Shown: positions 5,380-9,625 of the stretch, piece after piece
Numbering within the stretch: the stretch's first letter is position 1
How the letters are laid out: the number at the start of each line of letters is the position of its first letter
Source: a virus
Strand: one strand, 5' to 3'
UHGV virus genome: UHGV-0149279
DNA: 14,924 nucleotides
Translations under genes and position numbers: made by a program
Notes under the pieces: model-generated
What the model saw: only the letters and a program-made list of their open reading frames with translations
What the model was told of the DNA's origin: nothing
The model's database searches: none

Positions 5380-5925
5380 TCACATGACCCCCAACATCGA
5401 AGTGACCATCGTCATCAGCGGGCCTACCTGCTCCGGCATGAGGCGGAACAGCGACGCTATACCCTCGCTTACCTCTTTCAGCTTCTGATGCTCTGGAGCG
5501 TCCAGCAGCACAGCCTGTTTAGCTTCGGCACACTCTTTCATCGCAGAGGCGATCAGAGACATCGTGTCGTTCTGCGGCGCCAGGCGGTTGCGGTACTCCA
5601 GCGGAAGGACCGACATGATTGCTGGCGCCAGCTGGCGAATGTTGTTGGCGGCGTATTCGGTGTCGCCATCAATCCAGCGAAACACTTTCTGCATCTGGCG
5701 GTGCGAGTCAGTCGGGATATCCAGACCGGTTCCGCCGGACGCCCGCCACTCTTCAACAATCAGCGCTGCGACAAATTCACGGCTGCGGCAGTCAGCTGCC
5801 CAGGCCCGAACAGCTGCGCGGATCCCATCGATGTTTAACGCCGTGGAATCAGGTTCCCGGCGATTCTGGTAAATCATCGCCGCTGGCGAAAATTTGTTAC
5901 CTTGTTGATACGCAAGTGAATGCAT
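5380..5925 (-). CDS. YdaT-like protein (Rac-type, occupies the cII position)
   Basis: Immediately downstream of the cro-like gene. Central segment VFRWIDGDTEYAANNIRQLAPAIMSVLPLEYRNRL resembles my recollection of Rac YdaT; similarity is from memory only. RBS GGGAAAG. Confidence 0.45.
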   Translation of the reverse strand: MHSLAYQQGNKFSPAAMIYQNRREPDSTALNIDGIRAAVRAWAADCRSREFVAALIVEEWRASGGTGLDIPTDSHRQMQKVFRWIDGDTEYAANNIRQLAPAIMSVLPLEYRNRLAPQNDTMSLIASAMKECAEAKQAVLLDAPEHQKLKEVSEGIASLFRLMPEQVGPLMTMVTSMLGVM

Positions 5926-5955: not shown

Positions 5956-6201
5956 TCAGGCGGCTGTCGATTCATTTTTAATTCGGTCAGGGTTTGCAGC
6001 CTGTAGTAGCCACTCTGCCGTAAACTGCCCTTTTGATGCGTCAGCCAAAAGCTGTGAATAGTTGGTTTTCTCTGTGTACTCAGTGCGAGGCAACGCCGCG
6101 TTCTTTACCCACTTGTGAATAGCAACATTCGACAGACCACATAGGCGTGCCGCTGCGGTTTGTCCGCCTACAGCTTCGATTGCAAATTGCATTGGGTTCA
6201 T
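5956..6201 (-). CDS. Cro-like HTH regulator (YdaS family)
   Basis: 81 aa, divergent from cI; AVGGQTAAARLCGLSNVAIHKW fits the YdaS/Cro-type HTH pattern (A..GGQ.A.ARL.G.S...V..W). Confidence 0.65.
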   Translation of the reverse strand: MNPMQFAIEAVGGQTAAARLCGLSNVAIHKWVKNAALPRTEYTEKTNYSQLLADASKGQFTAEWLLQAANPDRIKNESTAA

Positions 6202-6285
6202 AGTGTTTTCCGTTAACTATATTAACTACAAGTTAAGGTTATATCTTAACTGACAGTTATGTCAACTCTAATTGATAATTAACAC
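6202..6285. promoter_or_regulatory. OR-like operator/promoter region between cro-like gene and cI
   Basis: Two palindromes TTAAC-N5-GTTAA: TTAACTACAAGTTAA (6222-6236) and TTAACTGACAGTTAT (6246-6260), plus extra TTAAC half-sites at 6213-6226. Candidate PR on minus strand: -35 TTGACA (reverse complement of 6260-6265), 16-bp spacer, -10 TATAAC (reverse complement of 6238-6243). Candidate PRM on plus strand: -35 CTGACA 6250-6255, -10 GATAAT 6274-6279, predicted start at or near the cI ATG (leaderless; no SD upstream of cI). Coordinates anchored to cro and cI start codons. Confidence 0.6.
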
Positions 6286-7053
6286 ATGGTTAAAAAAGAC
6301 GATTTAAAAGAAGAATTCTCGAAGAGACTTCGCGCTGCATTGCTTGATGCTGGCGTGGGTGGGCGTGGGCAGGCTGGCAGGATCAGGGAAGCTATGAAGT
6401 CCCAAGGGATTGCTGTATCTGAGCCCGGGATCTGGAAGTGGCTTAACGCATCAGCAATACCAGACCAAACCAATATCCTTGCACTTAGCCGCTGGCTTGG
6501 GGTTCGCCCTGAGTGGCTGGAATACGGAAGGAATGATCCTGAACCTGAACTGCACAGGGTATCATCCATCCCGCCTGAATCTGAGTGGGGAACTGTCGAC
6601 GCTTGGGACAAAAATACCCCCCTACCTGACGATGAGGTGGAAGTACCGTTTCTGAAGGATATCGAGTTTGCGTGTGGTGATGGGCGTGTTCATAGCGAAG
6701 ATCATAACGGCTTTAAACTGAGGTTCTCCAAGGCAACGCTCAGAAGGGTGGGTGCAAATAGTGATGGTTCTGGAGTGCTTTGCTTTCCCGCTTCTGGTGA
6801 CAGCATGGAGCCCGTTATTCCTGACGGCGCAACGGTAGCAGTCGATACAGGCAACAAGCGGATTATTGACGGCGAACTCTATGCTATTAACCAGGGCGAT
6901 TTAAAGCGCATAAAGCAGCTTTATCGAAAGCCTGGTGGGAAGCTATTAATACGAAGCATCAATCGCGATTATGACGATGAAGAGGCTGATGAGGCAGATG
7001 TCGAGATAATCGGTTTTGTGTTCTGGTACTCGGTATTGCGATATCGCCGATAA
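6286..7053 (+). CDS. cI: CI-type prophage repressor (N-terminal HTH, C-terminal S24 LexA-like peptidase domain)
   Basis: C-terminal GDSMEP (Ser nucleophile) and downstream DLKRIKQLY (Lys) as in LexA/CI autocleaving repressors; N-terminal HTH-like region; divergent from cro-like gene. Confidence 0.85.
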   Translation: MVKKDDLKEEFSKRLRAALLDAGVGGRGQAGRIREAMKSQGIAVSEPGIWKWLNASAIPDQTNILALSRWLGVRPEWLEYGRNDPEPELHRVSSIPPESEWGTVDAWDKNTPLPDDEVEVPFLKDIEFACGDGRVHSEDHNGFKLRFSKATLRRVGANSDGSGVLCFPASGDSMEPVIPDGATVAVDTGNKRIIDGELYAINQGDLKRIKQLYRKPGGKLLIRSINRDYDDEEADEADVEIIGFVFWYSVLRYRR

Positions 7054-7058
7054 TTTTA

Positions 7059-7171
7059 GTGGCCTGAAGAGACGTTTGGGTGATAAGAGAATATCTGATA
7101 GTAGGCGTGGTTACTTTGCTCTCGGTTGTTGCGATCGTGCTTATGGTGGCCTGATGAGACGTTTGGGTGAT
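7059..7171 (+). repeat. two copies of a 26-bp direct repeat GTGGCCTGA(A/T)GAGACGTTTGGGTGAT at 7059-7084 and 7146-7171
   Basis: 25/26 identical, 87 bp apart, immediately after the cI stop (7051-7053) and before the AT-rich cassette. Confidence 0.6.
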
Positions 7172-7319
7172 GGGCAAGGTGTTCTGGTCGGCGCATAGCT
7201 GGTGAAAAAATTATTTAATGCGGTGTATTGGCTGATTGTAACCCCATGTAACATCTTGCCGTCACCATTTCGGTGGTTAGATTTTTAATAAAAAAAACAA
7301 ATGTATAGCAAGGTTTTTT

Positions 7320-7799
7320 ATGGATAAAATTAATTACCCACCCCTGTTTGAGCCAGGGCTCCATGACATGGATGAAGCTGGATTAAAATCGTATTGTGTC
7401 GATTGCTTTCCTTCATCATCCAGGCGAGGCATGCTATACTGTAATTTTATACAGCTACTCGAATCTATTCGAGAATTATCTGCTCAATATGGCTGTTTTA
7501 CAGAAATATGGGTTGATGGTTCATACACCACGTCTAAACCAGAGCCTGATGATATTGATATTTTGTTGGTATGTGACTATAGCAATATAAACTCAATACC
7601 TGTCATGCTTCGGGGCCGCGTCGATAATTTGCTTGACCGAAACTACATCAAACAAAACTACAAAATTGATGTCCTACTACTCATGAAGAATTTAGATGAC
7701 CCTAACTATGATTATGAGTACTGGCGTAGCTACTGGCGCGGTTGGTTTGGTTTTGATCGCAGTGAAAACCCGAAAGGGTTAGTGAGGATTTTTTTATGA
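7320..7799 (+). CDS. minimal nucleotidyltransferase-fold (Pol-beta superfamily-like) protein, 159 aa
   Basis: FTEIWVDGSYTTSKPEPDDIDILLV fits hG[GS]-x9-D-x-D-h (compare generic MNT LFGSYARGEATEDSDIDLLV); third acidic residue in a hydrophobic strand at KIDVLLL. AT-rich (roughly 35-42% GC by eye versus above 50% in flanks). RBS AAGG. Family assignment is motif-based inference. Confidence 0.5.
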   Translation: MDKINYPPLFEPGLHDMDEAGLKSYCVDCFPSSSRRGMLYCNFIQLLESIRELSAQYGCFTEIWVDGSYTTSKPEPDDIDILLVCDYSNINSIPVMLRGRVDNLLDRNYIKQNYKIDVLLLMKNLDDPNYDYEYWRSYWRGWFGFDRSENPKGLVRIFL

Positions 7800-8728
7800 A
7801 TGATAAATCAATGTTTAAAAATTGCGATAAACGCATTGATTTCATTCAAAAAGAAGTCGATGCAATGAAGCAAAACAAAACCAGGTCCTTTGCTGACATG
7901 CTTCTTTATCGCTCCATGGATTCTCATCTGAGCGATTTGAAGGCCGAAAAATTAAAGCAAGATAGTCGGCACCCACTTATCGATTTTTTTGAGCTGCGGC
8001 TGAAAGGCTCTGAGGTTGACTTTGGCTCTATTCCTTTAGAGCTGCTTGGGGCTATTTCAACAAATCTTGCAGCGCTAATACAAAGAGCAACACACAAAAT
8101 TGCCTCAGGCAAGGACTCAAAAAAAGTTCCCTACGACGTGAAAAGCTCCTTAAACCTCAGGCTGGCTGATTTATCCCCTGGGTCTACAAAATTGGGCGTC
8201 ACCTTCTCTACAGGAATAGCAGAATTAGTAGAAACAGTACCCAGCAAGGCTGTAAAAGGCATATTCGATTTGTTGTTAAGCGATGACGACAACAACTTCA
8301 TGAATCACGTCGCTGAAATTGGATACAATTCCACTGTAAGCCTTAAGAGAATCGTAGAGGAATGCGATAAACACAACTTAACATTTGATGCAAGTTGGAC
8401 CGGTCCATTTAGTAATGGCACCAAGGTGGCAACTATTGACTCCAATAAAATTAAGTACTTGGTGAGTAGACTTACATCAACCATTTCATCCCCTCCCATT
8501 ACTGAAACGGTTACAGGCGAACTGGTCGTTCTATCCAAATATGGGAAGCTGGAGCTTGATGTTGGTGGTGAACATTTAAAGGCTTCCTATCCGATTGAAA
8601 TGCTAGATTTAATACAAAAAAAACACAAGGTCGGACAGATTGTTTCTCTTTTAGTGGAGACTACTGAGATTCACAATGATCGCATAGGTCTGTACCGTAA
8701 AAACCATCTTGTTAAATCGGTTCTTTAA
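7796..8728 (+). CDS. hypothetical protein, 310 aa, translationally coupled to the upstream NTase-like gene
   Basis: ATGA overlap with upstream stop; AT-rich; no motif I can assign (one R-x4-H match, RSMDSH, near the N-terminus is not sufficient to call HEPN). Confidence 0.6.
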   Translation: MNDKSMFKNCDKRIDFIQKEVDAMKQNKTRSFADMLLYRSMDSHLSDLKAEKLKQDSRHPLIDFFELRLKGSEVDFGSIPLELLGAISTNLAALIQRATHKIASGKDSKKVPYDVKSSLNLRLADLSPGSTKLGVTFSTGIAELVETVPSKAVKGIFDLLLSDDDNNFMNHVAEIGYNSTVSLKRIVEECDKHNLTFDASWTGPFSNGTKVATIDSNKIKYLVSRLTSTISSPPITETVTGELVVLSKYGKLELDVGGEHLKASYPIEMLDLIQKKHKVGQIVSLLVETTEIHNDRIGLYRKNHLVKSVL

Positions 8729-8735
8729 TATCTCA

Positions 8736-8759
8736 CCCGGCCACCGCGCCGGGTTTTTT
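8736..8759 (+). terminator. rho-independent terminator after the cassette
   Basis: CCCGGC-caccgc-GCCGGG stem-loop followed by TTTTTT, starting 8 nt after the stop at 8726-8728. Confidence 0.7.
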
Positions 8760-8843
8760 ATTGCCCACCCATAAAGCCATCCTCCATTCTGCCGATAACT
8801 ATCCAGCCTGAAGCTGATAACAATAACTATCGCAACACTACCT

Positions 8844-8868
8844 GCCCGCCCGTGCGGGCTTTTTTATT
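8844..8868 (+). terminator. second plus-strand rho-independent terminator
   Basis: GCCCGC-ccgt-GCGGGC followed by TTTTTTATT; overlaps the 3' end of the convergent minus-strand ORF 8864..9061. Confidence 0.55.
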
Positions 8869-9061
8869 GTCCTTTCCGCACTATCTCAGCTGCATCCCTG
8901 TTCACACCCTTACCTATCACGTTTCCCGTTTCCTTCCGGTACCGTTCCAGCTTGTCGATGATGTTTTGCTGGGTCATAGGTAAATCTGCCAGTGACAACT
9001 CCATGACCGCCCGCCCCATGGCGTGAACCATCATGTTCACTCTTTCTTCATTCAAGCCCAT
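8864..9061 (-). CDS. small hypothetical protein (65 aa), convergent with the cassette
   Basis: Strong RBS AAGGAG about 8 nt upstream of the ATG on the minus strand (reverse complement of 9062-9075); no recognised motif. Confidence 0.5.
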   Translation of the reverse strand: MGLNEERVNMMVHAMGRAVMELSLADLPMTQQNIIDKLERYRKETGNVIGKGVNRDAAEIVRKGQ

Positions 9062-9169
9062 TACCCACTCCTTTTTGATGTTTTTTTCAGCATATCACAT
9101 GCCAAGCAAATCTATAACCAAACCAAATTAACCAATAAATCATAACCTTAATAACCAACACAGAAATAA

Positions 9170-9212
9170 TTAACCATTGGTTATTGACCGAAAATAACCA
9201 TTAGTTAATAAT
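9170..9212 (+). promoter_or_regulatory. pL-like promoter with two OL-like operators
   Basis: -35 TTGACC 9184-9189, 17-bp spacer, -10 AATAAT 9207-9212. Palindromes with the same TTAAC-N5-GTTAA architecture as OR: TTAACCATTGGTTAT 9170-9184 and ATAACCATTAGTTAA 9194-9208. More TAACC repeats upstream (9110-9160). Confidence 0.5.
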
Positions 9213-9625
9213 CAACCCATCGAAACGAAACATCGACAGCTGAGCGAAGTTAGCCAGCGGCGGACAGCAAGTCGCCTGCTTTTTAACAACATGCAGATTT
9301 ACAGCGTCAATGACCTGTTAAGACCCCTACACGTAAACGTGCTGTATCACCGGGTGCGATCCGGTCGGTGAGAGAGTATCCCCGCGCGAGAGCGAGAACG
9401 GCGTGAGAACGGGCAACACTGGCAGGGAGTTGGCGCTGACCAATACAGGGAATGTTATGGGATGTGGTGAAGGGTTCATGGACGGGAATATGTCGCACGT
9501 AAAGCGGCGAGGCCCGAGGAGCTATTGCCGAAGATAAGTAGGCCGAATCGGGTCGAAATGGGTCTCCCACCTACCACATCGCCAAAGCATTTCTCCCGCA
9601 TCAGCGGGTAACGACAGAGGGTTTT

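Follow-up and report, generated by a model that had tools for sequence, protein, structure and literature searches.

The slot between the lysogeny repressor gene and the promoter pL is the home of rexAB in phage lambda and a recognised source of defences expressed by the lysogen. In the stretch of 14,924 nucleotides (nt) of virus genome UHGV-0149279 that was analysed as a whole (the window), this slot of a lambdoid prophage holds a cassette of two genes, here called A and B, of which the first encodes a putative minimal nucleotidyltransferase (NTase). Like lambda rexA-rexB, the cassette lies directly 3' of the repressor gene, in the same orientation and ahead of a terminator and pL, and it still contains the cI 3'-end sequence found ahead of rexA in lambda. 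It differs in having no sequence or fold relationship to rexAB, in the absence of membrane-protein features from B and in its inferred biochemistry. Quite possibly, and we put this forward tentatively, it is a conflict module of the repressor operon that is wired to the SOS response, in which B would tether A by a hairpin and sense nucleic acid, A would provide the output and LexA would adjust the ratio of B to A.

7320-7799, plus strand: gene A, an open reading frame (ORF) of 159 amino acids
7796-8728, plus strand: gene B, an ORF of 310 amino acids

The closest described system is PDC-M63, a computational “guilt-by-embedding” defence candidate for which no function has been shown; embedding within BREX, DISARM and restriction-modification (RM) loci was the basis on which PDC systems were defined (bioRxiv 10.1101/2024.01.29.577857). 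Protein A matches the PADLOC hidden Markov model (HMM) of PDC-M63A (PDLC04744) with E 4.2e-41, its residues 1-158 falling on positions 1-148 of the 152-position model, while six PDC-M63B models match protein B, the best of them (PDLC04749, E 7.5e-45) over residues 23-304. Both HMMs are thus matched end to end by adjacent genes, with the same gene order and the same two-gene architecture, and no sequence-level difference from PDC-M63 was seen; on these profile matches the cassette is assigned to that candidate system. Protein A further belongs to Pfam DUF6932 (E 1.7e-24) and to phrog_9194 (E 2.7e-64), its RefSeq name being “DUF6932 family protein”, and B belongs to phrog_6603 (E 3.4e-147). Pfam returned no family for B, a sub-threshold match to PSV_trans_reg_dom being discarded, and NCBIfam gave no match for either protein. 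An earlier inspection of the letters alone (the sequence-only reading) had stated that the pair matches no named system and that its second component may be a new family. The first statement fails against PDC-M63, itself a mere candidate, as well as against PHROGs 9194 and 6603 and DUF6932; the second fails because B is a catalogued family of at least 824 cluster representatives at 50 % identity in an exhaustive profile search, 178 of them below E 1e-30, albeit one that carries no functional annotation. Membership in this catalogued, uncharacterised candidate family is what was already known; to this the present analysis adds the domain anatomy of B, the modularity of adaptor and partner, an explanation of the upstream repeats, the systematic linkage to repressors and a conserved LexA box. 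A search of the literature for DUF6932, PF22014, the PHROG identifiers and the RefSeq accessions found no mention in the papers covered, and PDC-M63 was named only in the study of E. coli NILS69 discussed below.

Window positions 7146-8762 recur at 99.6 % nt identity in the cI-N region of phage mEpX1 (JQ182727 / NC_019709 / PV340543), where the same slot reads cI, then A and B, then N/Nun. The mEpX1 copies of A and B are annotated as hypothetical proteins, B being 100 % identical to that of the window. The window differs from mEpX1 by another repressor, by an extra relic cI end (7054-7084) and by other flanking early genes. Among cultured phages the only carriers are mEpX1, PhiR30_1 and Erwinia phage vB_EhrS_59, each with the order cI, A, B. 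A survey of 5426 complete E. coli genomes found the cassette in 18, in each case in the chromosome, and homologues of A fall into 101 clusters that reach from Enterobacterales to Marinobacter, Thioalkalivibrio, Bermanella and Acidobacteria.

Two other systems resemble the cassette in their architecture. In MntA-HepT, a small minimal NTase with an hG[GS]-x9-DxD signature is, like A, encoded first, and the partner gene that follows overlaps it; A has MntA structures among its best structural matches. Hailong, composed of the NTase HalB and the channel HalA, likewise combines in two genes an NTase of the DNA polymerase beta (Pol-beta) fold with a nucleic-acid-binding partner (PMC13276650). Conservation of the following residues was read from an alignment of 51 homologues of A.

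7518-7523, plus strand: G67-S68 catalytic motif, invariant
7551-7559, plus strand: D78-x-D80 (D78 I D80), invariant
7668-7670, plus strand: D117, the third acidic residue, at least 90 % conserved
7725-7778, plus strand: C-terminal motif RSYWRGWFGFxRxExPKG, specific to DUF6932

Protein A thus carries what marks a minimal NTase, namely hG[GS], Dx[DE] about 9-13 residues further on and a third carboxylate on a later beta strand. Its AlphaFold2 (AF2) model is of high confidence, with a predicted local distance difference test (pLDDT) score of 95.9, and the core fold matches those of solved NTases. The best structural matches are the minimal NTases MntA and ANT, with match figures of 5.5 for the aminoglycoside enzyme ANT(3'')(9), 5.4 for minimal nucleotidyltransferase (MNT) antitoxins, 5.2 for both HI0073 and cGAS/DncV-like NTases (CD-NTases) and 3.8 for HalB. 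In the family profile, GS, DxD and the third Asp align with the palm of DNA polymerase beta, a weak match (E about 0.1), and a search of all Protein Data Bank (PDB) chains with both the single sequence and the profile gave only marginal Pol beta matches, again at E about 0.1. The predicted structure and the HMM agree with the NTase signature that the sequence-only reading had recognised in the first protein, and A is confidently modelled as a divergent minimal NTase of the Pol-beta fold with an intact catalytic triad and a predicted activity. Its nearest structural relatives are too distant for its substrate to be inferred from them. In the C-terminal motif nearly every specified position is invariant or nearly so, and the motif has no counterpart in other NTase families.

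Two known types of system were considered for A and the cassette and rejected. For AbiE/MenT, no AbiEii/DUF1814 match was obtained, A is only 159 amino acids long and it is encoded first, where AbiEi would be upstream. For the cyclic oligonucleotide-based signalling systems (CBASS), the expected CD-NTase of about 300 amino acids with a signal-binding effector was not found.

The partner of A is of a different nature. Homologues of B are uniformly about 305-325 amino acids long and carry no fused domains, and the model of B (pLDDT 77) divides into a helical hairpin, a central region and an oligonucleotide/oligosaccharide-binding (OB) fold.

7796-7966, plus strand: helical hairpin, B residues 1-57 (AF2 helices 10-25 and 32-56)
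7979-8488, plus strand: central alpha/beta region, B residues 62-231, which includes a low-confidence loop
8183-8185, plus strand: codon of S130, in the loop motif RLAxxxPGST, which reads RLAGxxxGSTRL across the 142 representatives described below
8498-8722, plus strand: C-terminal OB fold, B residues 235-309 (beta1-3, helix, beta4-5; pLDDT 85-92)

Among 142 representatives of roughly 20-25 % identity, S130 is the sole invariant column of B; it lies in the loop of about residues 100-150, where the pLDDT falls to 50-65. The same representatives share no conserved set of Asp, Glu, His or Lys, and B therefore does not look like an enzyme. The C-terminus forms a five-stranded barrel with a helix between strands 3 and 4, as in OB folds, and is nearest to RuvA domain I and to single-stranded DNA-binding proteins (SSBs). 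This is the kind of OB fold that binds single-stranded nucleic acid, and such binding is predicted for B from its model. Neither membrane segments nor a recognisable effector domain were found in B, and a search of all PDB chains with sequence and profile returned nothing meaningful (an LPXTG repeat at E 0.0026 and a transaldolase at E 0.83). A HEPN domain, known from the partners of other minimal NTases, was rejected for B: there is no HEPN match in Pfam, NCBIfam or PADLOC and no conserved Arg/His pair, and the fold is that of a hairpin followed by alpha/beta and OB parts. The profile checks for HEPN and DUF1814/AbiEii that the sequence-only reading had proposed for the pair were thus negative. 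Residues 62-146 of B, and residues 62-278 of the partner protein at locus L005, show weak repeated similarity (E 3e-5 to 3e-6) to PDC-M32A, another uncharacterised PADLOC candidate of about 375 amino acids.

The two genes form an obligate, translationally coupled pair. Of the 80 IMG/VR loci that the A profile retrieved, 78 have B directly 3' of A, and the remaining two end at a contig edge. Most A-B junctions show the same 4-nt overlap, and distant chromosomal homologues keep the arrangement of A followed by B. In the window the overlap is ATGA at 7796-7799, in agreement with the two coupled ORFs first described there, and a GAGGA Shine-Dalgarno sequence lies inside the end of A, 8 nt 5' of the B start. 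A third conserved gene was looked for and rejected, as the genes immediately 5' of the pair at three chromosomal loci (L090, L091 and L092) are mutually unrelated and without a PDC-M63 match.

DUF6932 proteins can also be found with partners other than B. At an acidobacterial locus (L003/L004 6454-7464) the partner is a tetratricopeptide-repeat (TPR) protein, and at a phage-like locus (L008 6459-6713) it is a protein of 84 amino acids. What the two have in common with B is confined to its N-terminal hairpin, some 55 residues long (PADLOC E 5.6e-4 and 2.8e-6; hmmsearch 7.6e-7). Since the hairpin is all that the partner types share, we infer that it serves as the adaptor that binds A, with A as the constant enzymatic module and the remainder of B as a sensor that can be exchanged.

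Temperate phages carry the cassette in their lysogeny-repressor operon, and it is also found in chromosomal defence islands. S24 repressors account for 34 of the 67 distinct upstream neighbours in phages and most of the others are Cro/CI-type helix-turn-helix (HTH) proteins; all are co-oriented with the cassette, and some of the repressor genes overlap the A start by about 20 nt. Identity among these repressors is only 13-50 %, which means that the cassette has become linked to many immunity types. In the window it follows directly, in the same orientation, on a repressor gene of this kind.

6286-7053, plus strand: S24/LexA-type (CI-type) repressor with HTH and S24 peptidase (Pfam Peptidase_S24, E 5e-19; phrog_4 transcriptional repressor)

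The cassette has a guanine-plus-cytosine (GC) content of 0.403 compared with 0.523 for the rest of the window, where the lowest same-sized segment reaches 0.481. Low GC relative to the flanks and the recurrence of the same cassette behind many repressors both bear out the idea of a horizontally moving moron. The chromosomal copies have surroundings typical of defence loci. At L007 the pair is flanked by YefM/YoeB and a type I RM system; at L091 a type IV restriction enzyme lies on one side and YefM/YoeB with AbiE on the other (the genuine AbiE pair being separate from A-B); and at L092 the adjacent gene is weakly TIR-like. These restriction and toxin-antitoxin genes, together with the PADLOC listing, keep plausible the defence or toxin-antitoxin-like role that had been proposed on first inspection. 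In two unrelated chromosomal loci (L002 355-5566 and L005 139-5626) A-B is directly beside imuA-imuB-dnaE2, the SOS mutasome, with an expected LexA box at 5586-5605 in the former. A general link to these genes was not adopted, as they are present at L002 and L005 and absent at L090-L092. A DinI gene is the upstream neighbour in one locus.

Within gene A itself lies a sequence that resembles a LexA binding site.

7437-7456, palindromic: LexA box-like palindrome TACTGTAATTTTATACAGCT, inside A, codons 40-46

Its core, CTGT-N8-ACAG at 7439-7454 (codons 40-45), is the only exact copy in the window, and TACTGTAATTTTATACAGCT shares 15 of its 20 positions, including the entire core, with the gammaproteobacterial LexA consensus TACTGTATATATATACAGTA (PMC8072944). 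About 50 of 54 enterobacterial-type cassettes, with A genes that share only about 60 % nt identity, retain the box; the arms are constant and the spacer varies. Codon usage was compared in 17 representatives of less than 90 % identity, six box codons being set against 72 other conserved degenerate codons by a Mann-Whitney test. Fixation of synonymous codons stands at 0.92 in the box and at 0.56 elsewhere (p = 1.3e-4), none of the 72 other codons reaches 0.9, and the fixed box codons include the rare CTA and ATA. The 20-nt window of the box is as conserved as the catalytic DxD region. By these measures the box is under selection at the DNA level, and it is a predicted site of LexA binding. It overlaps an extended -10-like sequence, TGcTATACT, at 7432-7440 on the plus strand, from which a transcript would encode B but not full-length A.

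Other boxes were seen outside A. An independent and strong LexA box, CACTGTATTTTTTCACAGTA, occupies L064 4912-4931 in the intergenic region 77 nt 5' of a distant A-B pair (38 % identity). A second CTGT-N8-ACAG with a GC-rich spacer (CTGTACGACGACACAG; CTGTACGACGAAACAG in L019) occurs inside S24 repressor genes, at position -261 relative to A in L028-L037, -429 in L044 and -450 in L019; this one is probably a coding coincidence. A conserved promoter 5' of A was rejected, the upstream regions of diverged alleles failing to align, and the promoter and terminator scan upstream of A returned only a weak terminator-like hairpin at 7258-7277.

In the reading preferred here, B would dock on A through its hairpin and act as sensor and regulator, its OB fold reading a nucleic-acid cue from infecting or replicating phage. 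A would be the output enzyme. Its nucleotide transfer might serve as a regulatory switch, with the S130 loop of B as acceptor, or might be directed at a target of the cell or the phage, and the outcome would be growth arrest or abortive infection to the benefit of the lysogen. LexA would tie expression to the SOS state, most likely by way of an internal SOS-derepressed promoter that would raise B relative to A on prophage induction. This reading is favoured because of the identity with PDC-M63, the obligate coupling of the two genes, the combination of a constant enzyme with a variable partner, the conflict context, the repressor linkage and the SOS link. It turns an anonymous PADLOC candidate, which fills the repressor-pL slot of many temperate phages both in and outside Enterobacterales, into a testable model with an enzyme of defined catalytic residues, an invariant serine, an OB fold, an adaptor hairpin and a LexA box. 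Since mEpX1 grows on E. coli K-12, its predictions are open to standard genetics. The SOS wiring, if true, would make this a prophage-borne conflict module expressed in coordination with the prophage's own induction.

Several observations weigh against this reading. In the only published test found, deletion of PDC-M63AB from a prophage of E. coli NILS69 left infection by 10 virulent phages unchanged (PMC12409345), a null result that calls for caution about defence. The TPR-type partners lack the S130 loop although their A proteins keep the catalytic residues, which makes S130 unlikely as a universal substrate. A viral contig (L038 5471-6402) carries an intact A and a B split in two, and E. 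coli KL53 has an intact B with an A truncated at its 5' end (the first ~94 codons are absent; the match starts at window position 7481, codon 54). These two loci hint that neither gene is strongly toxic or lethal alone, or else they may reflect sequencing errors. For the LexA box, a generic promoter scan of the window called no promoter at its position, and a role as a minus-strand promoter or as a roadblock would be equally possible. We regard as unlikely a bolder form of the proposal, according to which the cassette would represent a mechanistically new class of prophage immunity wired to the SOS response of the host: a minimal NTase tethered by an interchangeable sensor (OB here, TPR elsewhere) would perform serine nucleotidylylation or protein-primed synthesis on the S130 loop, and a LexA-controlled internal promoter would shift the balance between B and A, which would keep the system from being set off when the prophage itself is induced.

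A rival explanation borrows the logic of type VII toxin-antitoxin systems: A would be an antitoxin that nucleotidylylates S130 and so keeps a toxin B inactive, the unmodified B being harmful through the action of its OB fold on single-stranded nucleic acid of host or phage. The closest solved relatives of A are indeed MNT antitoxins crystallised with AMPylated HEPN toxins (7ae9, 7ae2, 8xeh), the gene order with the small NTase first and the overlapping stop and start are the same, and the only invariant residue of B is a serine in a flexible loop. However, B has neither HEPN nor another recognised toxin domain and no conserved catalytic residues, catalytically intact DUF6932 proteins also pair with TPR proteins or with the 84-residue hairpin-only protein, which have no S130 loop to modify, and in KL53 an intact B persists beside a 5'-truncated A. 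We consider this rival improbable. The Hailong-like alternative, in which A would constitutively make a short oligonucleotide that is held by the OB fold of B until its removal by a phage nuclease or SSB releases the activity of B, is very unlikely. It draws on the presence of an OB fold in B and on the parallel between HalB-HalA and an NTase with a nucleic-acid-binding partner (PMC13276650), but B has no membrane segments or recognisable effector domain, A is no closer to HalB than to any other Pol-beta-fold enzyme, and partners of the TPR type would not bind an oligonucleotide.

The last alternative leaves defence aside and sees in the pair a module of SOS-related DNA metabolism for the benefit of the phage, in which a Pol-beta-like transferase and an SSB/RuvA-like OB protein would act on DNA ends or single-stranded DNA at induction or upon damage. 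Much of the SOS evidence can be read in this way: the conserved LexA box in A and the second box 5' of A in L064, the consistent position of the pair beside RecA-cleavable repressors, the imuA-imuB-dnaE2 genes that adjoin two chromosomal loci and the DinI gene upstream in one. The similarity of the OB fold to RuvA domain I and SSBs, the weak profile match of A to the Pol beta palm and the missing defence phenotype in NILS69 point in the same direction. Against this stand the absence of imuABC beside three other chromosomal loci, the classic defence islands in which several loci reside and the first recovery of the family embedded in BREX, DISARM and RM systems. Moreover, the cassette is a low-GC accessory found in only 18 of 5426 E. 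coli genomes, as is usual for dispensable conflict cargo. On balance we judge the DNA-metabolism explanation rather improbable as well, and the SOS-wired conflict module, tentative as it is, remains the reading that we prefer.

The sequence-only reading had noticed a pair of 26-bp direct repeats upstream and tandem terminators downstream. The repeats are real, with copies of 31 nt that are 90 % identical and spaced by 87 nt, and both terminators are hairpins with T-runs on the plus strand.

7054-7084, plus strand: direct repeat copy 1, a relic cI 3' end of the lambda type that reads ..WPEETFG*
7141-7171, plus strand: direct repeat copy 2, a relic cI 3' end of the mEpX1/lambda/434 type that reads WWPDETFG*
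8735-8760, plus strand: intrinsic terminator 1 (hairpin 8735-8754), a 7-bp stem with 6 GC pairs, then TTTTTATT
8844-8866, plus strand: intrinsic terminator 2 (hairpin 8844-8859), a hairpin with a T-run

Window positions 7054-7170 are 98 % identical to the region 3' of the phi80 cI gene. The match to mEpX1 begins at 7146 and the stop codon of the mEpX1 cI gene corresponds to window 7168-7170, so copy 2 is the true cI end in that phage; further database matches to copy 2 also fall on cI 3' ends. In all loci of the window type (L010-L022) the copy-2 element lies 164 nt 5' of A, whichever repressor precedes it, and both copies are also present in L010, L011 and L019. Since the cI-end element remains constant across repressors, the repeats are best explained as recombination scars at a known mosaic joint and not as the ends of a mobile element. 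Terminator 1 follows immediately on the B stop codon. The two terminators themselves form a 23-nt direct repeat of 83 % identity (8744-8766 and 8850-8872), which may be another duplicated joint.

The wider arrangement of the window, with repressor, cassette, pL-like promoter and rightward operon in succession, upholds the comparison with the rexAB slot that had been drawn on first inspection.

5956-6201, minus strand: Cro-like gene
9184-9212: promoter-like site, pL-like

Before the repressor come genes for a replication O protein, a DnaC-like and a YdaT/cII-like protein and then, on the minus strand, the Cro-like gene. Beyond the site at 9184-9212, the rightward operon comprises a Gam-like inhibitor (GamL), RecT, a YqaJ exonuclease, the excisionase Xis and the integrase Int. 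Rfam and tRNA scans of the window gave no match. Between the cassette and the pL-like promoter there is a 65-amino-acid ORF (8864-9061, minus strand; phrog_3975) whose transcription runs toward the cassette; it has no Pfam match and is hypothetical in the annotation of E. coli G3/10. The AT-rich region 5' of the pL-like promoter (9100-9240, compared with 6202-6285) contains the near-palindromes TAACCATTGGTTA and TAACCATTAGTTA. E. coli G3/10 carries window positions 6567-9612 at 98 % identity with a different repressor N-terminus and oR region, so that the left operators may mismatch the repressor in one prophage or in both.

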